A stretch of 64,000 bases of DNA from Leptospiraceae bacterium (GTDB lineage Bacteria; Spirochaetota; Leptospiria; Leptospirales; Leptospiraceae). The position numbers and the translations under genes were made by a program. The stretch lies in assembly GCA_024233865.1 (NCBI GenBank), contig JACKPA010000012.1, positions 64,001 to 128,000 on the forward strand, in the 5' to 3' direction. Positions 7,187 through 47,909 of the stretch are shown piece by piece (the stretch's first letter is position 1; each line of letters begins with the position of its first letter). The notes below the pieces were generated by a model that made no database searches, was not told the DNA's origin, and was given only the letters and a program-made list of their open reading frames with translations.

Positions 7187-8146
7187 TTAAAGAAAATTCC
7201 TTTGGTAGATTAAAAAGATTGTATAAGATGCGTAGAATACCAAAAATACAATTCCTGCAAATTTATCGAATTTTTCCTGAGTTTTCATCAAACCCACCAA
7301 TAATAGTGTAGATAAAATCAATACCCATGAGTCCCTTTGCAAAAACTCAGGGCTTATTGGGATTGGTTTTACCACTGCTGTTACACCTAAAATGCCTAAA
7401 ATATTAAAAAGATTACTTCCGACAACGTTTCCAAGAGCAATATCTGCTTCTTTCCGGTAAGCGGCAACAGCACTTGTTATCATTTCCGGCATAGAAGTAC
7501 CAACAGCAACAATAGTCAAACCAATAACCGCTTCGGATACTCCGTATATTTTTGCAAGAGCAACTGAACCTTCAACCAGTACATCGGAGCCGTAAGCTAA
7601 TGCCAATATTCCCATAAAAACGAGCAAGACTCCGTGCCACCATTTGTATTTTTCCAAAGATTTTAAGTCAACATCCACGTCTATATCTTCTTCCGGTTGT
7701 TTTCGAACTTTTTTAACCGTATACCAATTGTAAAAAATGATTGACCCAACGAGGAAAAGCCCTTCCAAACGATACAAAAAATCTCCCAAACAAAACAAAA
7801 CTAGTAAAACCGTATACAATAATAGCATAGGAGCATCAAATTTCAGGAGCTTTTTGTTGATATGGATCGGATAGATACAAGCCGTTAGACCAATGATCAA
7901 GAAAATATTACTAATATTACTCCCAATTACATTTCCAATGGCGATGTCAGAATGTCCGGATAACGCTGATTGAATACAAACAACCAACTCCGGAGCAGAA
8001 GTTCCCATAGACACTACGGTTAGTCCGATAACCAATGTAGAAAGCCCGAAGATTCTTGCCAAAATTACGCTCCCTCGAACCAATCCTTCCCCCCCTACCA
8101 ACAAAAGCAAAAGACCTCCAATAATTTTAGAAATAATAAGTATCAT
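7187..8146 (-). CDS. CaCA-family Na+/Ca2+ (cation/Ca2+) antiporter, YrbG-like
   Basis: Two alpha-repeat signatures, GNVIGSNISNIF and GNVVGSNLFNILGILG, in a ~10-TM protein with an acidic central loop (PEEDIDVDVD). Confidence 0.8.
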   Translation of the reverse strand: MILIISKIIGGLLLLLVGGEGLVRGSVILARIFGLSTLVIGLTVVSMGTSAPELVVCIQSALSGHSDIAIGNVIGSNISNIFLIIGLTACIYPIHINKKLLKFDAPMLLLYTVLLVLFCLGDFLYRLEGLFLVGSIIFYNWYTVKKVRKQPEEDIDVDVDLKSLEKYKWWHGVLLVFMGILALAYGSDVLVEGSVALAKIYGVSEAVIGLTIVAVGTSMPEMITSAVAAYRKEADIALGNVVGSNLFNILGILGVTAVVKPIPISPEFLQRDSWVLILSTLLLVGLMKTQEKFDKFAGIVFLVFYASYTIFLIYQRNFL

Positions 8147-10639: not shown

Positions 10640-11027
10640 TAAAAAAACATTTGTTAGATTAATTTTTGTTTGTATCCAAATGCTCGTTTCTAAATAAGAA
10701 ACAAACCATCTAATAACAAAAACTAAGACAAAAAAAAAAGAAATTCCGGTGAAGAAAAGTTCATATCTAAATAACGATTTTTGGGCAGTTAATACTCACG
10801 TCTATACAAATTTTATTTTTCACCACATATAAAAGTCTGTTATTACAAGTAGTTTCGATATGCTAGCTTCGAAATCGCACTGCTCAACGACCGTTAAATC
10901 AAAAAACCACTTTGTGCTGAGAGTATGCTCTATCTTAAAAACTCTACTTAATGACCGTTCTATGGCATACGACAAAATGATTAAAATCAATCAAATTTTC
11001 AAAGCAACCAAATTGATTAATTTTAAT

Positions 11028-11279
11028 CTAAACAGAAAATTTACATTTAACACCGCAATGAGGGCATATACACATTACTTCTGCTTTTACAGTTCTACCC
11101 TTTGAAGTTTCAACCTTTCCAATGGCAACAAACTCAAAATCAACTCCTTCGGGAACATAATGCCCTTTCCCATATTTAGCACTTCCTTCTATAAACCCCG
11201 AACAAGCGTGGCATTTCACTTTAATTTTTAAAACATCAGCCATAACATCTCTCCTATAAGTGAACCAAAATACTGACAA
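11028..11279 (-). CDS. Small Cys-rich (CxxC...CxxC) zinc-ribbon-like protein
   Basis: CHACSG...CPHCGVKC. Probable start at internal MADVLKIK. Confidence 0.3.
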   Translation of the reverse strand: MSVFWFTYRRDVMADVLKIKVKCHACSGFIEGSAKYGKGHYVPEGVDFEFVAIGKVETSKGRTVKAEVMCICPHCGVKCKFSV

Positions 11280-11431
11280 ATAGTCATGCTTATAATTGTT
11301 TACACATATGACTATTTGTCAGTATTGCACGTCTCTTTTACTAAGCATATTATTTGTAAATTCATAAAATGGATTTGTAAGATAAACACAAATGAGGACT
11401 TTACCCAATTTCTTCATGTAATTACCCTACA

Positions 11432-11818
11432 CTACTTTTCAGATTTTGATTTAATCCCAGAATTTATAACTACCGTTGAAGATTCTATCTTCCTTTTTCT
11501 TTCTCCAGAAGGCTTTTTTATGTTTGCAGGCTCTGGTGAATCAGGAATATATACGTGTTTATTAACGCCTTGCTTTTCGTTTCTCTTAACCATATATATA
11601 AAATGTTTTACATATTGTGTGTACGGTTCCGGAATCTCTTTTGGCTCAAAATCCAAAGGCTTCTCCAATAAACTATTCACAACAAGCATATTAAGATCTT
11701 CTTTGCTCGTTAAAATTAGGCTTTCCAACCTTTTGCATATCTCATGATCATTAACTTCATTGCTCAATCTCTTCATTGCTTCTAATAATTTTTTGAACGC
11801 TGGTTGGTTTGTATTCAT
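11432..11818 (-). CDS. Hypothetical protein
   Basis: ORF co-directional with the regulator cluster. No recognised motif. Confidence 0.3.
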   Translation of the reverse strand: MNTNQPAFKKLLEAMKRLSNEVNDHEICKRLESLILTSKEDLNMLVVNSLLEKPLDFEPKEIPEPYTQYVKHFIYMVKRNEKQGVNKHVYIPDSPEPANIKKPSGERKRKIESSTVVINSGIKSKSEK

Positions 11819-11849
11819 TTTCTACCTCTCTTACAGATTTAAAAATATA

Positions 11850-12881
11850 TTATATTAATCTTCTTGCCCTATACTTCCATTCCCAAAGCATTATCTCATC
11901 TTCTATATTAACGGCTTGCTCCTGATATTTTTCAAGCAAAGCATAAACCATAGAAGCTACCTCTTTAGAAAACCCTTTCTCAAGTTCTTTTTCAAATTGT
12001 TCTTCATCTTGATCTATTATCATGATCGCAAGACGAAAGACTTCATCTAAGCTTTTTAACTTTTCTAATTCAATGGAAGAGCTATTTTTTTGAGCTTCAT
12101 CTTTAATCATCACAGACAAAAAGGTTCTAATAAATATAACATCTTCTGATTTTAAATTAAAGTCAAATAATAGTTGCTTTACTTTATCTAACTCCATCTT
12201 CCTCATATGAATCCTAGCAAGGAAAACCGGATTTTCCGAATACATATTTAGATTAGAATTAGAAGAAACCAATTCAGCCGCCCGAGCTTTTTCAGTATCA
12301 ATAATAGGTCTGGCATTATAATCATCATCATTTCGGTGAGCTTTGGACTCTATAACGGTTGATATTTTCTTTTTTAATATCAATATATTCAAACTAGGAT
12401 ACCTTATTTTTAAAGTAACCATATCGGTTCTTTTCAAGTTTTCATCCGCTACAATATGATGAAATTCAAGTCCTCCTTGTTCAACAGCTCCAATGATTTC
12501 TTTTACATCCTCGTAATGATAAATAACTACAGGCAAAACGTCACTTTCCGACCCGGAATTCAAAAATATAGTTTTGATGTCTCTAGAACCACCGTGCTGA
12601 TATGGAATCACTAATTTTCCCGATTTAACATTCACAAAACTAAGTTCCCCCAATCTAAAATGGGATAAATTAAAATCGTCCCCCAAAAAAACTACTCTAG
12701 GAACTGTCACTATAATCGAATTATTTTTTGCTCCTTTAGGGATTTCAGGACCTTTAGGAGTGAACACAACATAAGTCATTTTATTAAGCCTGACTTTCAC
12801 CAAATAGCCTGCCGGTGTTTTCCTCTCTTCATAAGTAGTTTGCTGTTCTTCATCAATTTCCATATTAAAACTCCAAATCAA
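11850..12881 (-). CDS. Hypothetical protein, co-transcribed with the bEBP-like regulator
   Basis: Overlaps the upstream gene by 17 bp. No recognised motif. Confidence 0.4.
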   Translation of the reverse strand: MIWSFNMEIDEEQQTTYEERKTPAGYLVKVRLNKMTYVVFTPKGPEIPKGAKNNSIIVTVPRVVFLGDDFNLSHFRLGELSFVNVKSGKLVIPYQHGGSRDIKTIFLNSGSESDVLPVVIYHYEDVKEIIGAVEQGGLEFHHIVADENLKRTDMVTLKIRYPSLNILILKKKISTVIESKAHRNDDDYNARPIIDTEKARAAELVSSNSNLNMYSENPVFLARIHMRKMELDKVKQLLFDFNLKSEDVIFIRTFLSVMIKDEAQKNSSSIELEKLKSLDEVFRLAIMIIDQDEEQFEKELEKGFSKEVASMVYALLEKYQEQAVNIEDEIMLWEWKYRARRLI

Positions 12882-14199
12882 ATTGCTTCATCTTATACTG
12901 TAATGATCCTCTTGAGATTCCCAAAGCTTTGGACATTCTCATTTGATTGCCTGCAAAAAGTTTACTGGCAAGAATAATTTTTTGTCTTTCCATATTCTCC
13001 ACACACTTTCTTAAGTTCAAATCCTCATTTGTAAGAGTTATAGGTTGTGGCTCGCAAGTAGAAGCAAGATAGTTTTCATCCAAATCAATTTCACTTCCTT
13101 TAGCTCTTACTATTGAATTTTCCAGCAGTCCCCTAAGCTCTTTTAAATTTTCGGAATAATCATGCTTAGCCAACAAATCCAAAGTCCTATTAGAAAGTTT
13201 CAGACCGGAACGACCATGCAAAAGTTTTAATTCATAAAACATCTTCCGTATTACTTCCAAGAGAACTATTTTATCCAATAAATTTAACTTTGGTAAAAAA
13301 ACAGAATTCTCATTCAAAATATCCCAAAATGGTTGATAGGTATCCACTCTACTTTCATTTCTATCAATAAAAAATAAACTACAAGCTTTTTTTTCTTTCT
13401 GTAAAAATTGATAAAACAAGTTTTGCTGTCCCACGTTAAAGGAATCCACACCGTCAAAAACAATTACTCCATGACGAATCATCTTAGTCCAATTTTCCAA
13501 AGATTTTTCCAACTTTCCAAGCTGTTCCGGTATTGAATTGATAAAAATAAAATCACCGCTATATTCAAATTTTCTGTAAATATATTTAGCCAAAGATTTT
13601 TTGCCGCTGCCATTTCCGCCACCTATCAATAAAACAGGTGGAAAAAAATCGCTATTGATTTTCTCAAAACCACTAGAAAAAGAAACCAATAATTCAATTA
13701 TTCCAAAATCGCTTTTGTCAGAAAACTCAATTGCCTTTTCTCCATCATCATTTTTGTATTTAAGAGAATATATCTGACCGACCCTATTGGCAAACATCCC
13801 TATGAATAAAGACATAATGTCTTTGCATACACCCGTAAACTCAAACAAAACAAACCCTACTACATTGCCTCTTTTAGCAATAATTCTTGAAACCAAAGCA
13901 AAATCCGAATAATTAAAATAAAGCTTAAACTCCTTTGCATAAAATATCAAAGGAAGAATTGAAGCTTCCACTTTCTCCAAATGCCCCCCCCCCCTCGATA
14001 AAAACCCATAATAAAAACCATCTTGCCCATAACCGGAAATGGCACATTCAATAAAATAATCTTTACCAACTGGTGCAAGAGCTATAGTCCCACAATTTGC
14101 TCCTACTGCATTCACAATTTGCTCAAAAACTAAAGACAATTCATTCTCTAAGCTTTCAGGAGTAAGGTTCTCATTGAACAATAAGTTATACAATATCAA
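12865..14199 (-). CDS. Degenerate sigma-54-activator-like (AAA+ central domain) regulator with C-terminal Fis-type HTH
   Basis: Walker-A-like GGGNGSGKKSLA. Central-domain remnants IVFDGVDSF..QQNLFYQFLQ, VFLPKLN.LDKIVLL and ENLKELRGLLENSI. C-terminal HTH MRMSKALGISRGSLQYKMKQF. No GAFTGA seen. The ORF contains a G11 tract. Confidence 0.55.
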   Translation of the reverse strand: MILYNLLFNENLTPESLENELSLVFEQIVNAVGANCGTIALAPVGKDYFIECAISGYGQDGFYYGFLSRGGGHLEKVEASILPLIFYAKEFKLYFNYSDFALVSRIIAKRGNVVGFVLFEFTGVCKDIMSLFIGMFANRVGQIYSLKYKNDDGEKAIEFSDKSDFGIIELLVSFSSGFEKINSDFFPPVLLIGGGNGSGKKSLAKYIYRKFEYSGDFIFINSIPEQLGKLEKSLENWTKMIRHGVIVFDGVDSFNVGQQNLFYQFLQKEKKACSLFFIDRNESRVDTYQPFWDILNENSVFLPKLNLLDKIVLLEVIRKMFYELKLLHGRSGLKLSNRTLDLLAKHDYSENLKELRGLLENSIVRAKGSEIDLDENYLASTCEPQPITLTNEDLNLRKCVENMERQKIILASKLFAGNQMRMSKALGISRGSLQYKMKQFDLEF

Positions 14200-14392
14200 C
14201 CACCAATAAAACTGCTACAACCTAGTTCAGTGTCGGACATCCGACAAAATATTCTTATAGACTAGAATATTCATCCCTTAGTAAGAATCACGCAAAAAAT
14301 ATAAAAATAAATTAAAAGTATTGATTTATTACAAGCTAAATATTTTAAACTCAAAATAGATTATTTTATAAAAAAATAACGAAATCTTTCCT

Positions 14393-15148
14393 ATGATTAT
14401 TGTATCGATAGCCAACCAAAAAGGTGGAGAGGGCAAAACAACCACTTCAATAAATCTAGCTGATGGAATAGCTAGAAGAAATAAGAGAACTTTGTTAATT
14501 GATATGGATCCACAAGCAAATTCGACCGGTATATTTTTAAATTCCGATCAAATAGAAAAATCAATGTACCATGTTTTTAATTCTTTTGCACCTGTAAAAG
14601 AAATTATCCACAAAACCAAAGTCGAAAATCTTGATATCGCTCCTTCTGAGCTAAAATTGGCCGAAATGGAAACAAGGAGTTCTAATACGGTAGAAGCTCC
14701 TTATATACTGAAAGACGCTTTGAGCAACCTAAATAATGAGTATGACATCTGCATAATCGATTGTCCTCCTAGTTTATCCATCTTTACCATCAATGCTTTG
14801 GTTGCTTCCAATTATATAATCATTCCTTTACAGGCAGAAAAGTTTTCGATTGATGGCATAATAGGACTACAAGGCACTGTTGATAATATAAAAAAGAGAA
14901 TCAATCCTCAACTACAGATTCTAGGAGCACTTATTACCCAATTAAAACCCCAGACATTATTAACAAAAACAATCGTACCAGTAATTGTAAAGTTTTTTAG
15001 GTTGTTTGATACAACAATTTCAGACGGTGTATCTGTTGGAGAAAGCAATATGGCAAGAAGTTCTGTTTACACCTATAATAAAAAAAGCAAACAAGCGCAG
15101 GAATATGAAAACTTTACAGAGGAAGTTTTAAATGAGCTCGAAAAGTAA
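14393..15148 (+). CDS. parA: ParA/Soj partition ATPase
   Basis: Deviant Walker A NQKGGEGKTTTS; 251 aa. Overlaps parB by 17 bp. Confidence 0.9.
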   Translation: MIIVSIANQKGGEGKTTTSINLADGIARRNKRTLLIDMDPQANSTGIFLNSDQIEKSMYHVFNSFAPVKEIIHKTKVENLDIAPSELKLAEMETRSSNTVEAPYILKDALSNLNNEYDICIIDCPPSLSIFTINALVASNYIIIPLQAEKFSIDGIIGLQGTVDNIKKRINPQLQILGALITQLKPQTLLTKTIVPVIVKFFRLFDTTISDGVSVGESNMARSSVYTYNKKSKQAQEYENFTEEVLNELEK

Positions 15149-15980
15149 AAGATTAGGGACTCTTGTTGATATATTTCAAGCAGAAACATTAGAAGGCTCT
15201 ATAAAAAAAATTAAAATAGACTCAATACAACCCTCTGATACTCAACCTAGAATAGATAGAAGGAAAGCAGTCGATGAATTAGCAGAAAGTCTAAAACAAA
15301 ATGGACTTCTGCAACCAATTCTAATAACAAAAAGAGATGGTGAAAGTAATTACAGAATTATAGCAGGAGAGAGAAGATATCATGCTGCCAAATCATTAGG
15401 GTGGACAGAATTAGAATGTAAAATATTAAATAAAACAGAAAAAGAAACCTACAAACTAGCCATTATAGAGAACTTACAAAGAGAAAACCTTACTCCCTAT
15501 GAAGAAACAGAAGCCATTGCATTTTTAAAAAGCAACTACCATTATACAGATCTGGAATTAGCAGAAATCTTCGGAAAAAGCCGAAGTTATATGACTGAAA
15601 TATTAAGCATCTCCACACTAAATAAAGATGAGATGCAAATTTGCAAAGAAAACGGTATAGGTACAAAAAACCTTCTTGTTCAGGCTGCACAAGCCTCTAA
15701 AAAAGGAGATTTCACTGAATTCATAGAGCAAATAAAAAATAAAGAAATCAAAACAGTTAAAGACGCAAAAAAATTTAATAAAAAGATAACCATTGAAAGC
15801 GATAACACTTTAAACGATGCTATCCCCCTCAATACCCCCAATGAAAACCACCAAGAAACCAAAAGTAATTATACAATAACAAAAGATTCCAATCAAATAA
15901 TTATACAAGTCAGCAATCATGAGCTTATCAATAAAATCTATGAGTTTATAAGCCAAGAATTAGCAAATCTTCAGCTATAA
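15132..15980 (+). CDS. parB: ParB/Spo0J partition protein
   Basis: ParB box IIAGERRYHAAKSLGW. The N-terminal ParB/Srx fold is followed by a divergent C-terminus. Confidence 0.85.
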   Translation: MSSKSKRLGTLVDIFQAETLEGSIKKIKIDSIQPSDTQPRIDRRKAVDELAESLKQNGLLQPILITKRDGESNYRIIAGERRYHAAKSLGWTELECKILNKTEKETYKLAIIENLQRENLTPYEETEAIAFLKSNYHYTDLELAEIFGKSRSYMTEILSISTLNKDEMQICKENGIGTKNLLVQAAQASKKGDFTEFIEQIKNKEIKTVKDAKKFNKKITIESDNTLNDAIPLNTPNENHQETKSNYTITKDSNQIIIQVSNHELINKIYEFISQELANLQL

Positions 15981-16115
15981 ATATACTATGATTAGATTCA
16001 CTTGATTTTAAAGGATTTTCTGCATTTCATATCTACAAACCAATCCGCGTTGTGTATAGTATCGCTCATTAGTTTATTCCAAATCACCTTAATCAAAATC
16101 GAAGGAATATTCATT

Positions 16116-16192
16116 CCTGTTGATTAAATTTAATCAACAGGAAATCGATCTTAAAGCACGTGTAATATGATTAAATTTAATCATATTACACG
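16116..16192. promoter_or_regulatory. Two perfect palindromes (26 bp and 34 bp) sharing core TGATTAAATTTAATCA; candidate centromere (parS-like) or iteron/operator
   Basis: Palindrome 1 is CCTGTTGATTAAATTTAATCAACAGG at 16116-16141. Palindrome 2 is CGTGTAATATGATTAAATTTAATCATATTACACG at 16159-16192. Both lie in the 660-bp gap between parB and the Rep-like gene. Confidence 0.5.
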
Positions 16193-16500
16193 CTACATTA
16201 TTTGCGAAAATTATTCGCTGTGATCCATACATCTTCTGTGTTATTAGAGAAAAAAATTCGCATATTCTTGACAGAAACTACCATGGCGAAATAATGAGAC
16301 ATAAGTTATGATATGTCTAGTAAACTTTTACTAAGGGGATTTATGAATAATGAGGCTTTTGTTTCCTTTTTATCAAAAAGATGATTCTTTCACTCGAAAC
16401 ATGATTATAGAAAATTTATATACAGAATCAAGATTATGAACAGCAAAACAATTTTTTATTTCAAATGGAACAAAAAAAATTCGCATAAAACAAAAAAAGT

Positions 16501-16522
16501 CTCCTGGGTGAAAACCCAGGAG
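16501..16522 (-). terminator. Intrinsic-terminator-like hairpin, minus-strand orientation
   Basis: CTCCTGGGT-GAAA-ACCCAGGAG: 9-bp GC-rich stem with a GNRA loop. On the minus strand it is followed by AC plus a T7 run. No annotated minus-strand gene lies upstream. Confidence 0.4.
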
Positions 16523-16550
16523 TCGGAATCTCCCGAGGGAATGTTGTTGG

Positions 16551-17609
16551 ATGAGACATAAATTAACTTATAATCGAAGGGTGTCAATAATTTTTGATTA
16601 TATTTTGCTTAATATTAGTTTTTTTTTATCAAAAGGAGAAGGTATGAGCGAGAATTTTCAGTATTTTAAGTTCATGACTGATATTATAGACTCTGGGACT
16701 TGGGCAAAGCTGTCTTCCGCTGCCAAAAGCTTGTATCCTGTGTTGCTAAAATTTAGTGACCAGACTTTCAAGTATGTATGGCCTAGCACGGAAACCTTGA
16801 TGAGGCTGACCGGCTTCAAAACTAAAAAGTCTGTCATCTTGGCAAAAAAAGAACTTATGAACGTAGGACTTATCCGCACAGTCTCAGGTTCTGGGAGAAC
16901 TAATTCCAGATACTATTTTTCTTTTAATTACGAGGGTTCCAAAATTACACCTCTGGGGGATAAAGAAATATACCGATCAGGTGTATTGAAATCAACCGCA
17001 GAGGCATGTCCGGCTACATCTTTAGGGGATAGCTCAGCAAACCCAAACAATATTAATATAACTATAACCAATAATCCAGGTCAAAAAGCAAAAAATTCGA
17101 GTAATAAAACCAAAAATACTGACAACTATTTTAAAAACAATTTTTCTGAAGATGTATTATCTTATGAATCTTTGCTAGATATTTATGGAATTGAAATATT
17201 AAACTACGCTTATTCCATAGCTCAAAAGAGAAATCTGGAAAATGATATTTCTCACATAAAAGATATCTGCAAAGCTCGTGTTAAAGAAATTAGCTCTACA
17301 CTTGTGGGAGCAAAGCAAACACCAAACAATAACCTCGAAATATCGAGTATATGGTCTAATTTTATTAGATGGACAGAGATTCACTTGACTTCAACATCGA
17401 TTGAAATGATAAAAAATGCAAATATTCTCATTGAAGGACGAACAATTATTGTTCAAGGGGAGTTGAATAAATATTTGCAGCAAGTTATTGTGAAATATTT
17501 TTCTGAAAAAGTTACTCCTAAAATATTTATTTCTTTTAGTAATAATGAAAAGATAAATGGTAAAGCTTTAAATGGTATCGAATTTTCAAAAAACGGACAT
17601 TTTGATTGA
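16551..17609 (+). CDS. Winged-HTH replication-initiator-like / regulatory protein
   Basis: Probable true start at 16644 (ATG preceded by AAAGGAGAAGG). The N-terminal wHTH resembles plasmid/phage Rep N-domains (..SAAKSLYPVLLKFSD..WPSTETLMRLTGFKTKKSVILAKKELMNVGLIRT), followed by a low-complexity linker. Confidence 0.45.
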   Translation: MRHKLTYNRRVSIIFDYILLNISFFLSKGEGMSENFQYFKFMTDIIDSGTWAKLSSAAKSLYPVLLKFSDQTFKYVWPSTETLMRLTGFKTKKSVILAKKELMNVGLIRTVSGSGRTNSRYYFSFNYEGSKITPLGDKEIYRSGVLKSTAEACPATSLGDSSANPNNINITITNNPGQKAKNSSNKTKNTDNYFKNNFSEDVLSYESLLDIYGIEILNYAYSIAQKRNLENDISHIKDICKARVKEISSTLVGAKQTPNNNLEISSIWSNFIRWTEIHLTSTSIEMIKNANILIEGRTIIVQGELNKYLQQVIVKYFSEKVTPKIFISFSNNEKINGKALNGIEFSKNGHFD

Positions 17610-17760
17610 TTTTAATCAAAAGTTAAATTCAGATTTTGATATATTATTCAAAAAATAACTTATAAATTTAATTGTAAATTGAATGATAAATCCATTATTG
17701 TAATATTTATAAAGGGTAAAACACAAAAAGATTCAAGAAAATCATTAAAAAGAGAGTACA

Positions 17761-20290: not shown

Positions 20291-21160
20291 TTGAGTAAAA
20301 TTATTGATATTTATTTAAAATCCAATAAACCGGTTTTTTCTTTTGAATTTTTTCCTCCTAAAACAGTAGAAGGTGAAGAAAAATTATTTTTAACAATAGA
20401 GAATTTAAGCCAATTAAATCCTTCTTTTGTGTCCGTTACTTATGGTGCCGGAGGGACAACTCGAACTAAAACGGTTGAGATTTCACGAAAAATTCAAGAT
20501 GATTTTAAAATTGAAACTATGTGCCATTTTACTTGTGTAGGTGTGGATAGTAATCAAATCAAAGAAACTTTAGATTCAATCCATAATTTTGGTATTAAGA
20601 ATCTTATGGCTTTGAGAGGTGATCCTCCTAAAGGTGAAGGGAAATTTACTAAAACTAAGGGAGGGTTTGAAAATGCTACGGAGCTGATTTCATTTATTAA
20701 AAGTGAAGGCTATTCTTTTTGCTTGGGTGGAGGCTGTTATCCGGAAAAGCACCCTGATGCTCCAACCCTTGAAATAGATATTCAAAACCTTAAACATAAG
20801 GTAGATGCGGGAGCTGATTTTTTGATTACTCAATTGTTTTTTAAAAATAGTGTATTTTTTGATTTCTTAGAAAATACAAAAAAAACCGGGATCAACAAAC
20901 CTATTATTCCTGGAATTATGCCTATCACAAACTTTAACCAAATAGCAAGGTTTAAAGAAATGGCAGGTTGTGAAATACCAGAATCATTAGTTACTGAATT
21001 GGAAGCCTTAAAAGACGATCCAATCGAATTTCAAAAAAAGAGTTTAGCATATACTACCGGACAGTGTAAAGAATTGTTACAAAATGGAGTTTTCGGTATT
21101 CATTTCTATACGTTAAATCAATCTCGAGCTACTTTTGAAATTATGAAAAAACTAATTTGA
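20291..21160 (+). CDS. metF: 5,10-methylenetetrahydrofolate reductase
   Basis: SVTYGAGGTTR and MALRGDPP motifs; 289 aa. Confidence 0.85.
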   Translation: MSKIIDIYLKSNKPVFSFEFFPPKTVEGEEKLFLTIENLSQLNPSFVSVTYGAGGTTRTKTVEISRKIQDDFKIETMCHFTCVGVDSNQIKETLDSIHNFGIKNLMALRGDPPKGEGKFTKTKGGFENATELISFIKSEGYSFCLGGGCYPEKHPDAPTLEIDIQNLKHKVDAGADFLITQLFFKNSVFFDFLENTKKTGINKPIIPGIMPITNFNQIARFKEMAGCEIPESLVTELEALKDDPIEFQKKSLAYTTGQCKELLQNGVFGIHFYTLNQSRATFEIMKKLI

Positions 21161-43217: not shown

Positions 43218-43238
43218 GGGGTGAAATGATTTCACCCC
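43218..43238. promoter_or_regulatory. Perfect palindrome GGGGTGAAAT-G-ATTTCACCCC 17 bp upstream of second parA start; candidate ParA/ParB operator or centromere
   Basis: 10-bp arms. Contains GTGAAA/TTTCAC half-sites reminiscent of canonical parS (TGTTTCAC-GTGAAACA) but in inverted arrangement. Confidence 0.45.
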
Positions 43239-43254
43239 TACCAAAAGGATTTAC

Positions 43255-44031
43255 ATGAAAGAAGAAAAAAGCTCTAAAGAAGCAAATATAATTGCTGTAT
43301 CCAACCAAAAGGGAGGTGAAGGAAAAACTACTATTTCGCTTTTTTTATCAGAAGCGCTTTCGGAACATTTTAAAGTTTTACTTATTGATTGGGACGCACA
43401 AGCCAATGCAACAAGATTGTTTGTGAATAATCCGGAAAAGTCTATTTTTCACTGTTTAAAATATAGAAATAATTCACCAATTTCAATGAATGTGATAACT
43501 AAGCATATCACTGAGAATTTTCATTTGATTCCATCTTCTATTTCATTGGCTAACCTAACAACTCCTTTCGATATAGAAGATTTTGAATTATTAAAGGATG
43601 CTATCGAACCATTAAAACCTCTATATGATTATATTATTATAGATTGTCCTCCTTCTCTGGGATTGGTTTTGGAAAATGCTCTAATCGCAGCCGATTATGT
43701 AATTATACCAGTTCAAACCAGAGCTTTTAGTGTTCAGGGTTTACAAGATTTGTACAACTCTATTGAAAAAATTAAAAAAAGAGCAAATCCAAATCTTAAA
43801 TTATTGGGTGCAATCTTGAATCAATATGAAGAGAGTAGGGCATTGTCGGGTTTATCAAAAAATATTCGTAAATACTTTCCTGTATTCAAAACGATTATAT
43901 ATAGAAAAGAAAATATTCCGCAAGCTCAAGCCAAAAGAAAATTGTTGAAAGGATGTGATCCAAAAACAAGGAAGAATTTTTATGAACTTGCAAATGAAAT
44001 TCAGGAGCATATAAATGTCGAAAAAAAATGA
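43255..44031 (+). CDS. parA: ParA/Soj partition ATPase (second copy)
   Basis: Deviant Walker A NQKGGEGKTTIS. Overlaps parB by 17 bp. Confidence 0.85.
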   Translation: MKEEKSSKEANIIAVSNQKGGEGKTTISLFLSEALSEHFKVLLIDWDAQANATRLFVNNPEKSIFHCLKYRNNSPISMNVITKHITENFHLIPSSISLANLTTPFDIEDFELLKDAIEPLKPLYDYIIIDCPPSLGLVLENALIAADYVIIPVQTRAFSVQGLQDLYNSIEKIKKRANPNLKLLGAILNQYEESRALSGLSKNIRKYFPVFKTIIYRKENIPQAQAKRKLLKGCDPKTRKNFYELANEIQEHINVEKK

Positions 44032-44713
44032 ATTTGGAGCATTGGATTTAATTTCCGTATATGATGAAAAAAAGGAAAATCCTGATAAAATTCCAATTTC
44101 TGAAATTATATCAAATCCCAACCAACCAAGGGTATTTGGTAAAGATAATGTAGATGATTTGCTTGATTCTATAGAAAGGCTCGGTTTGATAGAGCCGATT
44201 GTTGTAAGAAAGGACTTAGATGGGTATGTCCTTGTTGCGGGAGAAAGAAGACTAAATGCTGCCACAAAATTAGGCTGGAGTGAAATTCCAGCCATTGTAA
44301 CGGATGCCAATCCTGATGTTTGTTATGAGATGGCATTGGCAGAAAATGAAAAAAGAAAGAGCCTTAATCCTTGGGAAGTGGGAAGAGCTATTGATTATTT
44401 AAGGAAGGAAAAAAATAAAACCGCTGATGAGGTTGGTAAGATACTCGGCTACACACCTAGATATATTAAACAGTTAAACGCTATTGCTAGAATTGAGCAA
44501 GATGTTGTGAATGAATTTATACAAAAAGGAAATGAGCCATCTATAAAAAATTTAGAAAGACTGCTTAAAATGCAAAGCGGAGAAGAACAACCAAAATATA
44601 AATATGTTCCAAAAAACAATAGGATAGTTATTGATTTAAAAAGAATTCCTGAGCAAGCCAGAGTTGATTTTATGGAAGAGCTTCAGAATTTAAAAATTAA
44701 GTATGGGATATGA
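44015..44713 (+). CDS. parB: ParB-like partition protein (second copy, short)
   Basis: ParB box LVAGERRLNAATKLGW; 232 aa. Confidence 0.8.
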   Translation: MSKKNEFGALDLISVYDEKKENPDKIPISEIISNPNQPRVFGKDNVDDLLDSIERLGLIEPIVVRKDLDGYVLVAGERRLNAATKLGWSEIPAIVTDANPDVCYEMALAENEKRKSLNPWEVGRAIDYLRKEKNKTADEVGKILGYTPRYIKQLNAIARIEQDVVNEFIQKGNEPSIKNLERLLKMQSGEEQPKYKYVPKNNRIVIDLKRIPEQARVDFMEELQNLKIKYGI

Positions 44714-47525: not shown

Positions 47526-47909
47526 TTATATTGGCTTTATTTCTATTACATTAAAAGGCAACTCATAGTCTTCTTGGTATTCATCACCCGTTTCTTTCCC
47601 AAAATCATTTTCCGGATCATAATGCCAATTAATGGTAATTTTTTTACCTGATTGGTAATAGGATTCAAGGATATCAAAAATATTCATGAATATTTTTGTG
47701 CTACTGGTGTTCAAATAGTCTATATTTATATCAAAAACGACGGGTTTATCCGATATTTTTACAAATTCATCTACCCAATAAATAATAGGTTCATAAAAAG
47801 CAGCAGGATTTTCCATATAGGATTTACCCTCTATTTTTAAGATACTGGTGTTTGCGTCAAATTCTATTTTTGGAGAAGACTTGCTTGCTTCTTTTTTTAG
47901 AGATTCCAT
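47526..47909 (-). CDS. DUF1987/SiaC-like partner-switch protein
   Basis: 127 aa. YEPIIYWVDEF...INIDYLNTSSTKIF...WHYDPENDF matches the SiaC-family 'YFNTSS' pattern. Confidence 0.55.
   Translation of the reverse strand: MESLKKEASKSSPKIEFDANTSILKIEGKSYMENPAAFYEPIIYWVDEFVKISDKPVVFDINIDYLNTSSTKIFMNIFDILESYYQSGKKITINWHYDPENDFGKETGDEYQEDYELPFNVIEIKPI

Follow-up and report, generated by a model that had tools for sequence, protein, structure and literature searches.

On the IncP plasmid RK2, the ParB homologue KorB is a centromere-binding protein that also represses globally, in cooperation with KorA at OA sites nearby, and its OB operator is a 13-bp GC-centred palindrome. Phage lambda O likewise reads symmetric DNA, binding dyad-symmetric iterons as a dimer at an origin (oriLambda) that lies in the middle of gene O itself. 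Partition sites of a further kind have been described for secondary chromosomes: in Vibrio cholerae, ParB2 reads parS2, with sites lying beside the initiator promoter and possible cross-talk between the control of partition and of replication (PMC3141006, PMC3688505), and the parS sites of Burkholderia chromosomes 2 and 3 are 16-bp sequences of the Bsr family (PMC5450999). For chromosome II of Leptospira, we found no description of centromere or origin control elements in the open-access literature.

Here, we analyze a 64-kb stretch of Leptospiraceae DNA (hereafter, the window), which is the origin region of a chromosome-II-type replicon of this family. Its genes run from a divergent regulator (12865–14199, minus strand) through parA1 (14393–15148, plus strand), parB1 (15132–15980, plus strand), a 663-bp spacer and a lambda-O-like rep gene (16644–17609, plus strand) to metF. 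This order, metF included, is the same as in L. interrogans chromosome II, and the cumulative GC skew has its minimum in the bin 15500–16499, with the skew switching in the parB-rep spacer. ParA1 is a 251-aa Soj/MinD-type Walker ATPase (Pfam AAA_31/CbiA/MipZ), and ParB1 is a 282-aa protein with ParB_N and HTH_ParB domains, homologous to the chromosomal ParB/Noc CTPase clamps (phmmer E 1e-26) and of the type that reads 16-bp dyads, with the recognition helix GKSRSYMTEILSIS. Rep, which is always encoded directly 3′ of parB1, carries an HTH_36 winged helix (Pfam) and matches phage replication-initiator and lambda-O-like families (PHROGs E 1.6e-11 to 3.6e-5); a Rep profile search against PDB sequences gave nothing meaningful. 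The regulator is a degenerate sigma-54-activator-like AAA+ protein with a Walker A motif, in which no GAFTGA was seen, and a C-terminal Fis-type HTH_8 domain; its gene adjoins parA in every relative and accompanies parAB-rep even on a 25-kb Turneriella plasmid. The presumed rep promoter, P1 (16268–16295, plus strand; TTGACA-16-AATAAT, 11/12), is conserved in all relatives.

The initial annotation of this DNA had described two perfect palindromes in the parB1-rep spacer, separated by 17 bp and sharing an identical centre with different flanks, and both reading of the sequence and palindrome enumeration bear this out. Palindrome 1, given there as the 26 bp CCTGTTGATTAAATTTAATCAACAGG (16116–16141), is indeed perfect over that interval, but its full extent is 30 bp (16114–16143, arms of 15, TTCCTG...CAGGAA); palindrome 2, CGTGTAATATGATTAAATTTAATCATATTACACG, is perfect over 34 bp (16159–16192, arms of 17). 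The two lie 47 bp apart, centre to centre, at 134–212 bp 3′ of the parB1 stop codon, with P1 following about 85–150 bp further 3′. Both contain the 16-mer TGATTAAATTTAATCA (16121–16136 and 16168–16183), of which the window holds exactly two exact copies, one per palindrome, and symmetry continues for a further 7–9 bp on each side of this core through flanks that are unrelated between the two. They are the longest perfect palindromes of the window, the next-longest having arms of 12, and none of 200 first-order Markov simulations of the window produced an arm above 12. The same palindrome sequence is present in three independent metagenome assemblies (L001–L003), the L001 contig ending within palindrome 2.

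Both palindromes are consensus-perfect copies of a 16-bp symmetric site, TGnTTAAwwTTAAnCA, here called box A, a hallmark of the partition/replication module in chromosome-II-type replicons of the Leptospiraceae (palindromic sites are given without strand). The two do not form the complete set, since three further copies, each two mismatches from the core, are present in the window: a left pair at 10978–10993 (TGATTAAAATCAATCA, 18.1 bits) and 11014–11029 (TGATTAATTTTAATCT, 18.4 bits), 36 bp apart between an MBOAT gene and a 71-aa zinc-ribbon gene, and a copy at 17603–17618 (TGATTGATTTTAATCA, 18.1 bits) that overlaps the rep stop codon. By position weight matrix (PWM), palindrome 1 is the joint best site of the window (21.9 bits), and the scan returns five sites of at least 18 bits, followed by a gap to the next best at 11.3 bits. 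A weak box A-like half-site (TGCTTAATATTAGTTT, 16606–16621, 10.3 bits) lies ~30 bp 5′ of the rep start, at a place where most relatives carry a stronger box, TGCTTAATTTTAAGAT. The symmetrized PWM is strong at TG.TTAA/TTAA.CA, with the outer TG/CA the best-conserved positions.

Allowing up to two mismatches, the five copies in the window compare with 0.34 expected, and this count was reached in none of 100 shuffles. Among 280 composition-matched palindromic decoys, box A ranks first in the window and again in a set of 19 non-redundant related loci, where it gives 14 matches in 12 loci against a decoy mean of 0.24. The initial annotation had proposed that dozens of generic AT-rich copies would speak against a dedicated site; instead, all matches in the window fall within 6.6 kb of the 64 kb (10978–17618), and in the complete L. 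interrogans chromosome II (350,181 bp), five of the seven matches of at least 13 bits, including the top two, cluster within 8.7 kb at parAB-rep. The boxes are real, far beyond chance, confined to the par/rep region and conserved in position across the family.

This conservation extends over ~20 lineages, to relatives as distant as the Turneriella plasmid. Boxes recur ~110–270 bp 5′ of parA, ~30–50 bp 5′ of the rep start, inside rep at +580 to +665, 1–56 bp past the rep stop codon (one or two boxes in each of L084, L004, L085, L088, L090 and L087) and near the 71-aa gene, the left pair having counterparts at 1886/1913 in L084 and at 7791/7828 in L. interrogans (L111). In L084, which is 71% identical to the window, a box pair occupies the same place as that of the window, with the box TGCTTAATTTTAAGCA carrying C for A at position 3 and G for T at position 14, a paired change that retains dyad symmetry, and being centred on TT rather than AT. 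In an independent test on two 20.8-kb loci that had played no part in PWM building, boxes lie where predicted, and the 8 kb on the right-hand side of rep contain none. The 25-kb Turneriella plasmid pTURPA.01 holds five boxes against 0.19 expected, all of them left of parA and within 5.3 kb of it. Boxes occur singly or in pairs, spaced 14, 26, 27, 29, 36, 37 or 47 bp apart, and are spread over 7–9 kb. Some are intragenic, lying in MFS transporter and hypothetical genes (Turneriella), in RNase T and MBOAT genes (L202) and in rep itself, and positions turn over, as in the lineage of the window and L084, where the box 5′ of parA has disappeared and the spacer pair has arisen. The intragenic copies and this turnover are centromere-like and suggest a function independent of exact position.

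The two palindromes had originally been proposed as a site for a ParB or Rep protein, and this survives insofar as box A is a sequence-specific symmetric site, of the kind read by a dimer, within a par/rep module; what has changed is its extent, with five copies in the window and a family-wide distribution. The binding protein, and the effect of binding, we infer from sequence context, with ParB1 the most likely reader, and we place at roughly 0.45 the probability that ParB1 reads box A as a centromere specific to this replicon or as a KorB-type operator. In line with this, the core is a perfect 16-bp dyad, within the ~14–16 bp suited to a ParB helix-turn-helix dimer, it lies just after parB1 and at the GC-skew minimum, and its copies cluster near the origin in the window, in L. 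interrogans chromosome II and in pTURPA.01. We hypothesize that a dimer of ParB1, as a homologue of the CTP-dependent ParB/Noc/KorB clamps, would bind each box A through its helix-turn-helix and load onto DNA there, giving a partition complex moved by ParA1, such that box A would be the replicon's own parS, separate from the canonical chromosomal parS. Where boxes are close to promoters, upstream of P1 in the window and, in relatives, at the regulator 5′ end and immediately 5′ of the rep ribosome-binding site, bound ParB1 would probably lower the expression of the maintenance genes as well, in the manner of KorB at the OB operators of RK2.

Like parS2 of V. cholerae and the Bsr boxes of Burkholderia, box A is a short palindrome unlike the canonical parS, present in several copies near its own parAB and origin, essentially absent elsewhere on the replicon and placed beside a plasmid-type initiator gene. 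Unlike them, TGnTTAAwwTTAAnCA is unrelated in sequence and has in ParB1 only a putative reader, and the replicon offers both a rival invariant palindrome (box G, below) and a second parAB locus. The likeness to KorB and OB lies in a ParB-family protein encoded together with palindromes whose positions include promoter-proximal, promoter-distal and intragenic ones. However, ParB1 is nearer to chromosomal ParB/Noc than to KorB, in place of the small KorA its potential partner would be the large, degenerate AAA+ regulator with its Fis-type HTH, and repression is here only putative.

The earlier statement that neither palindrome resembles the canonical parS (TGTTTCACGTGAAACA) is too strong, as 10 of 16 positions are in common, namely the outer TG.TT and AA.CA, although these amount to 5/8 independent half-site positions and are not significant alone (p about 0.06, an estimate). 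Box A and canonical parS share a perfect 16-bp dyad, the outer positions just named (10–11 of 16), a location near the origin and, in ParB1, the expected arginine: R151, which is retained, is the equivalent of R173 of Caulobacter ParB, a parS-contacting specificity residue whose Q counterpart in Noc reads the base at that place (PMC7383237). The difference is in the centre, where the six bases of box A are all A/T and those of the canonical site are CACGTG; the core departs from it at 6 of 16 positions, as against the one or two mismatches of a canonical parS. A scan of the window for canonical parS (TGTTNCACGTGAAACA) gave three-mismatch hits only, no more than expected by chance. On the protein side, D140 and E156 of ParB1 replace the conserved DNA-contacting Q162 and N178 of ParB/Noc, changes that would fit an altered inner site sequence, and the motif GERRxRA of ParB/Noc reads GERRYHA. 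The ParB1 reading helix is (nearly) invariant across the family. GTAC repeats near P1 in other Leptospira were considered as an equivalent parS and rejected, as they are lineage-specific and confined to the P1 promoter, whereas the ParB1 helix is invariant.

Several observations nevertheless argue against ParB1 as the reader. Its helix is nearly the same in box A-rich lineages and in the GC-rich lineage L005/L107, in which box A was not found within 4 kb on either side, and saprophyte-type loci show one strong box only in the 8 kb sampled. In addition, a second 16-bp TG...CA palindrome lies just upstream of parA: box G (TGTCGGACATCCGACA, 14231–14246; TGTCGGAyrTCCGACA), which overlaps a candidate parA -35 element and is invariant in every relative, including L005/L107 and Turneriella. 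It occurs in one to three copies confined to the regulator-parA promoter region, 30–220 bp 5′ of parA, a distance that reaches about 525 bp in L005/L107, and, in most lineages, 31–43 bp from a box A (about 79 bp in L004). Because box G is perfectly conserved even where box A is missing, it matches the invariant ParB helix at least equally well, and a site that is kept wherever the reading helix is kept describes box G better than box A. On general grounds, the two acidic substitutions at the ParB1 interface would also suit the C-rich box G over an all-A/T core. Box G is a serious candidate for the parS, or would otherwise be the operator of the regulator.

Alternatively, box A could be bound by the lambda-O-like Rep as a set of operator or origin sites, with ParB1 then reading box G, which we consider unlikely. 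Autoregulation would in that case be served by the P1-proximal pair and by the box 5′ of the rep ribosome-binding site, and boxes within or after rep would mark an origin in or beside the initiator gene, much as oriLambda lies in gene O. With the iterons and operator repeats of lambda-O-type and plasmid initiators, box A has in common a symmetric site near or, in relatives, inside the initiator gene and a pair 5′ of the rep promoter. The profile matches of Rep to phage replication-initiator and O-like families are in agreement with this, as are the conserved AT-rich 16-mer inside rep, the GC-skew switch in the parB-rep spacer and the boxes that flank or enter rep at -30 to -50, +580 to +665, +764 and stop +1 to +56, with six box-like sites in L090 that occupy the 3′ half of rep and the stretch immediately after the gene. 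These fixed places around rep (-35, +600, stop) are as compatible with Rep as with ParB1. Furthermore, the only lineage to lack box A, L005/L107, has two substitutions in the putative Rep recognition helix (KTKKS to KQKSS in L005) at residues invariant elsewhere, including in Turneriella; this correlation comes, however, from one generally divergent lineage. Against Rep, the sites form no phased tandem array (at least three repeats) beside an A/T-rich unwinding element, as iterons do, but are single or paired at 14–47 bp over 7–9 kb. The conserved pairs 3.4–5.4 kb to the left of parA and the boxes in unrelated genes are also hard to explain by Rep binding, the window rep has no internal box, and in L. 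interrogans the spacer from rep to the next gene is only 26 bp.

Could comparative data separate these readers? The DNA-reading helices of ParB1, Rep and the regulator are all conserved, and box position 3/14 varies freely, so that covariation does not assign box A to any of the three, with the single L005/L107 lineage as the exception. In a plasmid database, ParB1-like and Rep-like genes occur together in all three Leptospiraceae records, and gene presence or absence therefore does not assign it either. A scan of a genome collection with the ParB alignment yielded L004 and L005 as the useful loci among the matches listed, and the corresponding scan of viral contigs gave no close relatives (at most 41% identity over the N-terminal half) and no replicon with ParB1 apart from Rep or the regulator.

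That box A is instead the operator of the regulator, governing a small regulon made up of maintenance genes and their neighbours, with box G as both the parS of ParB1 and an operator, appears quite improbable to us. In its recognition helix, ISRGSLQYKMK, the regulator is similar to Fis, whose preferred sites are A/T-rich in the centre with G/C at the ends, and the gene is linked to parAB-rep in every replicon. The window boxes are all intergenic, upstream of the MBOAT gene, of P1 and rep, and of a discoidin-domain gene, and the strongest box of most relatives falls within the 5′ UTR or on the start codon of the regulator gene, as is typical of autoregulation. Yet the lineage of the window and L084 keeps the regulator but no longer has a box at its 5′ end, boxes within unrelated coding regions are unlike promoter operators, and L005/L107 has the same regulator helix without box A. 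Sites of NifA/TyrR-type regulators have the form TGT-N10-ACA, and box G, which has this form, is found at the promoter only and lies over the candidate -35 element, is the site expected for this class of regulator.

As DNA and as RNA, the palindromes fold into very stable hairpins (-25.3 kcal mol–1, z = -7.9, and -35.9 kcal mol–1, z = -8.1, respectively), and this, together with the extended symmetry through unrelated flanks and the location shortly after parB1, would be consistent with origin cruciforms, with hairpins that end or stabilize the parAB1 transcript, or with recent, functionless palindromic duplications. We judge such an explanation highly improbable, as it is a specific 16-bp sequence that is conserved rather than mere symmetry, recurring where not all sites can be transcript ends, in relatives without extended flanks and in a par/rep confinement that structure alone does not explain, and as neither palindrome has the G+C-rich stem-loop and T-run of an intrinsic terminator, the stems being A/T-rich with no T-run downstream and both being absent from the terminators predicted between 14150 and 17800.

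Returning to ParB1 as the reader of box A, a more elaborate form of this reading, which we hold to be rather unlikely in full, is a KorB-like system of an essential chromid. Here, ParB1 clamps loaded at box A would build the centromere and also tune rep, from boxes beside P1, the antisense-RNA promoter described below and the regulator 5′ end, together with the AAA+/Fis-HTH regulator bound at box G, the closeness of the promoter-only box G to box A recalling the OA/OB pairs of RK2. If so, segregation and initiation of Leptospira chromosome II, which carries essential genes such as metF and asd, would be wired through one set of sites, and a single origin would be surrounded by three layers of control (the ParB boxes, a countertranscript RNA and the degenerate enhancer-binding protein), a layout not known to have been described in spirochaetes. 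As a putative parS, box A also adds a case of ParB/parS specificity divergence that allows two replicons to share a cell without interference. Box A, box G and the antisense RNA are concrete, cheap targets for identifying the chromosome-II centromere and for the rational design of shuttle vectors that are stable or compatible in pathogenic Leptospira, a group with limited genetic tools.

The antisense small-RNA gene just mentioned lies in the rep leader (16491–16587, minus strand), with a -35 element TTGACA at 16587–16582 and a -10 element TAATTT at 16565–16560, and is predicted to give a ~62-nt transcript ending in a terminator stem (16522–16501) and U-run. RNAalifold on a MAFFT alignment of the antisense RNAs gave no consensus structure, with terminator stems of variable length misaligned, and single-sequence folds were used instead. 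An Rfam scan and a tRNA scan returned no matches. The predicted antisense RNA is conserved, and the replicon also carries, as noted above, a parAB locus additional to parAB1.

The two palindromes described in the initial annotation are present in the parB-rep spacer, in agreement with our reading of the sequence. All 34 bp of palindrome 2 (16159-16192) are perfectly symmetric, while the perfect symmetry reported for palindrome 1 stands but not its length, as the 26 bp originally assigned (16116-16141) sit within a longer perfect palindrome of 30 bp (16114-16143). Both share the core TGATTAAATTTAATCA (16121-16136 and 16168-16183), which has no other exact copy in the 64-kb window, and a listing of every gap-free perfect palindrome shows them to be the longest in the 64 kb. 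Arms longer than 12 occurred in 0 of 200 Markov-simulated windows, and the third-ranked real palindrome, CAAAAATATTCATGAATATTTTTG (47675-47698, ~3 kb downstream of a second parB gene, parB2), has arms of 12. The locus is identical across three independent metagenome assemblies. We note that the contig of one independent assembly of this sequence, L001 (Logan SRR12358675), ends at window position 16188, within palindrome 2, which suggests that long perfect palindromes break short-read assemblies.

We assign a probability of about 90% to the view that both palindromes represent one conserved protein-binding box specific to the maintenance module, namely a 16-bp symmetric box, TGnTTAAwwTTAAnCA (box A). 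At up to two mismatches, the window contains five copies (10978, 11014, 16121, 16168 and 17603) compared to 0.34 expected, a number reached in none of 100 shuffles, and box A ranks first against 280 decoy palindromes with permuted half-sites, both in the window (5 matches; mean 0.20) and in 19 non-redundant loci (14 matches in 12 loci; mean 0.24). With a position weight matrix (PWM), the five window copies score 18-22 bits and the runner-up 11.3; the source sites of the PWM were picked with the consensus and are to that extent circular, a weakness lessened by the decoys, the shuffles and the held-out loci. In the latter, two 20.8-kb loci outside the PWM set, boxes lie at the predicted places, some within the RNase T and MBOAT genes, and the 8 kb right of rep contains no box. 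In the family scan (23 metagenome loci found via Rep alignment, plus others, partly redundant phylogenetically), the degenerate box was found in almost all loci at recurring positions: 110-270 bp upstream of parA, at the 5' end of a divergent regulator gene; 30-50 bp ahead of the start of rep; at +580 to +665 of rep; and 1-56 bp beyond its stop codon. L084, which is the closest relative (71% ParB identity), shares all three box locations of the window, with two copies beside the gene for a 71-aa protein, two between parB and rep, and further sites where rep ends. Its spacer box, TGCTTAATTTTAAGCA, differs from that of the window at mirror positions 3 and 14, with the outer dyad symmetry kept and a centre of TT rather than AT.

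The locus restriction of box A was established for the 64 kb studied here and for the complete replicons of two relatives. On the complete L. interrogans Copenhageni chromosome II (350,181 bp, PWM cut-off of 13 bits), five of the seven matches scoring at least 13 bits, including the top two, fall within 287,828-296,556, which is 2.5% of the chromosome and is centred on parAB-rep. The 25-kb Turneriella parva plasmid pTURPA.01, of higher GC content, carries five copies compared to 0.19 expected, all of them left of parA at a distance of at most 5.3 kb, and several within coding sequences. As the matches cluster in this way on both complete replicons, the motif is not the generic A/T-rich repeat that the initial annotation had named as the finding that would count against it.

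The window itself is A/T-rich (~34% GC) and is a Leptospiraceae replicon of the chromosome-II type. It encodes a Soj-type ParA (parA1, 14393-15148), ParB1 (15132-15980, with ParB_N and HTH_ParB domains), an HTH_36 protein (rep, 16644-17609) and MetF (20291-21160). Named ParB proteins of Leptospira and Leptospiraceae share 51-59% identity with ParB1, and their longest contigs mostly measure 230-490 kb. The genes follow one another exactly as on L. interrogans chromosome II (MBOAT, 71-aa protein, hypotheticals, HTH regulator, parA, parB, HTH protein, discoidin-domain protein, metF), and their order also agrees with pTURPA.01. In PHROGs, the HTH_36 protein has matches among the lambda-O-like and phage replication-initiator families (E 1.6e-11 to 3.6e-5), and Rep is thus a fair name for it. 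The GC skew switches sign at the parB-rep spacer, with the cumulative minimum in the 15500-16499 bin, such that the palindromes lie within the predicted origin region. As to its type, box A would be a centromere or operator box particular to one replicon, a secondary chromosome, with counterparts in V. cholerae (parS2), Burkholderia (Bsr boxes) and RK2 (OB). Its core differs from canonical parS at 6 of 16 positions, placing it outside that class, and it lacks the phased tandem repeats of a classical iteron array.

Three sequence-specific DNA-binding proteins accompany box A: ParB1, Rep and the divergent regulator. Of these we tentatively favor ParB1 as the reader, at somewhat less than even odds. 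ParB1 is a ParB/Noc homologue (E 1e-26 against solved structures) with an essentially invariant recognition helix across its family, GKSRSYMTEILSIS. It retains, as R151, the equivalent of Caulobacter R173, a parS-contacting specificity residue whose Q counterpart in Noc recognizes the base at that position (PMC7383237). The most conserved box A positions in the PWM are the outer TG/CA, and D140 and E156 of ParB1 stand where the conserved DNA-contacting Q162 and N178 sit, which is consistent with the changed inner box sequence. Separately, residues 79-85 read GERRYHA throughout the ParB1 family, with the H invariant, compared to GERRxRA in ParB/Noc. The latter motif is part of the arginine patch and CTP pocket, and nucleotide handling by ParB1 may therefore differ.

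Upstream of parA lies a second 16-bp palindrome, box G (TGTCGGAyrTCCGACA, or TGT-N10-ACA; 14231-14246), which overlaps a candidate parA -35. It occurs without mismatch in essentially every locus from Leptospira to Turneriella, in one to three copies that are all upstream of parA, mostly at a distance of 30-220 bp, reaching about 525 bp in the GC-rich lineage L005/L107; the whole of L. interrogans chromosome II has it only twice, both upstream of parA. Box G is either the operator of the neighboring regulator or the true parS. The behavior of the two boxes leads us to propose that ParB1 would read box A and the regulator box G, in a geometry that recalls KorB/OB and KorA/OA of RK2. Copies of box A are spread over 7-9 kb, some of them within unrelated genes, and differ in position between lineages (in the window/L084 lineage, the copy upstream of parA was lost and the spacer pair acquired), as would be expected of a loading site or centromere, while box G keeps to a single promoter region in the manner of an operator.

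The main objection to this assignment comes from L005/L107: box G is present there in three copies and the ParB helix is nearly unchanged, whereas box A is absent within 4 kb on either side, and the putative Rep recognition helix LTGFKTKKS, invariant elsewhere, is altered at two residues. These observations favor box G as parS or Rep as the reader of box A, the latter being unlikely in our overall estimate. Both arguments draw on one divergent lineage with 8 kb sampled. Less likely still is the regulator (12865-14199, minus strand), a degenerate sigma-54-activator-like or enhancer-binding-protein-like AAA+ protein with GGGNGSGKKS as its Walker A and no GAFTGA seen, to which our proposal gives box G. 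It always adjoins parA, its Fis-like HTH (ISRGSLQYKMK) is invariant in all lineages, and it accompanies parAB-rep even on the 25-kb plasmid, and may therefore belong to the maintenance machinery. A structure-only or other explanation, for which one could cite the very stable hairpins or cruciforms that the palindromes are predicted to form, is at least as improbable, only the 16-bp core being conserved elsewhere.

In the window, symmetry extends 7-9 bp past the core on each side, with flanks unrelated between the copies, and site 1 of L084 also has partly symmetric flanks. Candidate explanations are extrusion of a cruciform close to the origin, selection favoring sites of highest affinity, and repair templated from inside the palindrome. 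A terminator scan showed both palindromes to be unlike terminators.

Downstream of the palindromes lies P1 (16268-16295, TTGACA-16-AATAAT), the presumed rep promoter, which is the strongest promoter match in this region and is conserved in all relatives. Between P1 and rep, a small-RNA gene lies antisense in the rep leader (16491-16587, minus strand; -35 TTGACA at 16587-16582), with a ~62-nt transcript that begins with a conserved single-stranded 5' tail, AUGUCUCAUCCAACAACAUUCC, continues into a hairpin of 4-5 bp, and ends in a terminator hairpin (16522-16501) with a U-run. The architecture is the same in every relative, Turneriella included (for example, about 5020-5110 in L004 and about 9240-9330 in L112), and the terminator stems vary in sequence between lineages with pairing always kept. 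The RNA has no match in Rfam, and its layout resembles that of a plasmid-type countertranscript that would control rep. We found no description of this RNA or of a Leptospira chromosome-II parS in the searchable literature, outside which many subscription papers lie. The element ATGAGACATAA occurs at the P1 start region (16294-16304) and again at the antisense promoter (16551-16561), and ATGnGACATAA is kept at both places in all relatives; in saprophyte-type loci it takes the form of a perfect inverted repeat, GACATAAT-4-ATTATGTC.

Other Leptospira have GTAC-centred repeats around P1 that are absent there in the window; the window/L084 lineage has TTCGC boxes in their place, and GCGAA-N5-TTCGC is found at 16203-16217. 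An exact 15-nt direct repeat, AAAAAAATTCGCATA (16250-16264 and 16473-16487), flanks a ~210-bp A/T-rich stretch between P1 and the antisense terminator that is particular to this lineage. Inside rep, the 16-mer ATATTAATATAACTAT (17050-17065), encoding part of the nearly invariant peptide PNxINITITN, is shared without change by the window and three saprophyte-type loci (L093, L094 and L098) with Rep proteins of only about 40% identity; this 16-mer may be an element acting at the DNA level within the initiator gene, by analogy to oriLambda within gene O. Finally, a second pair, parA2 (43255-44031) and parB2 (44015-44713), shows 54-60% identity to a further parAB pair of L. interrogans chromosome II (317041-318658), and is associated with a conserved palindrome, GGGGTGAAATgATTTCACCCC (43219-43239), ~15 bp upstream of parA2, the L. 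interrogans counterpart of which is GGGGTGCAATcATTTCACCCC.
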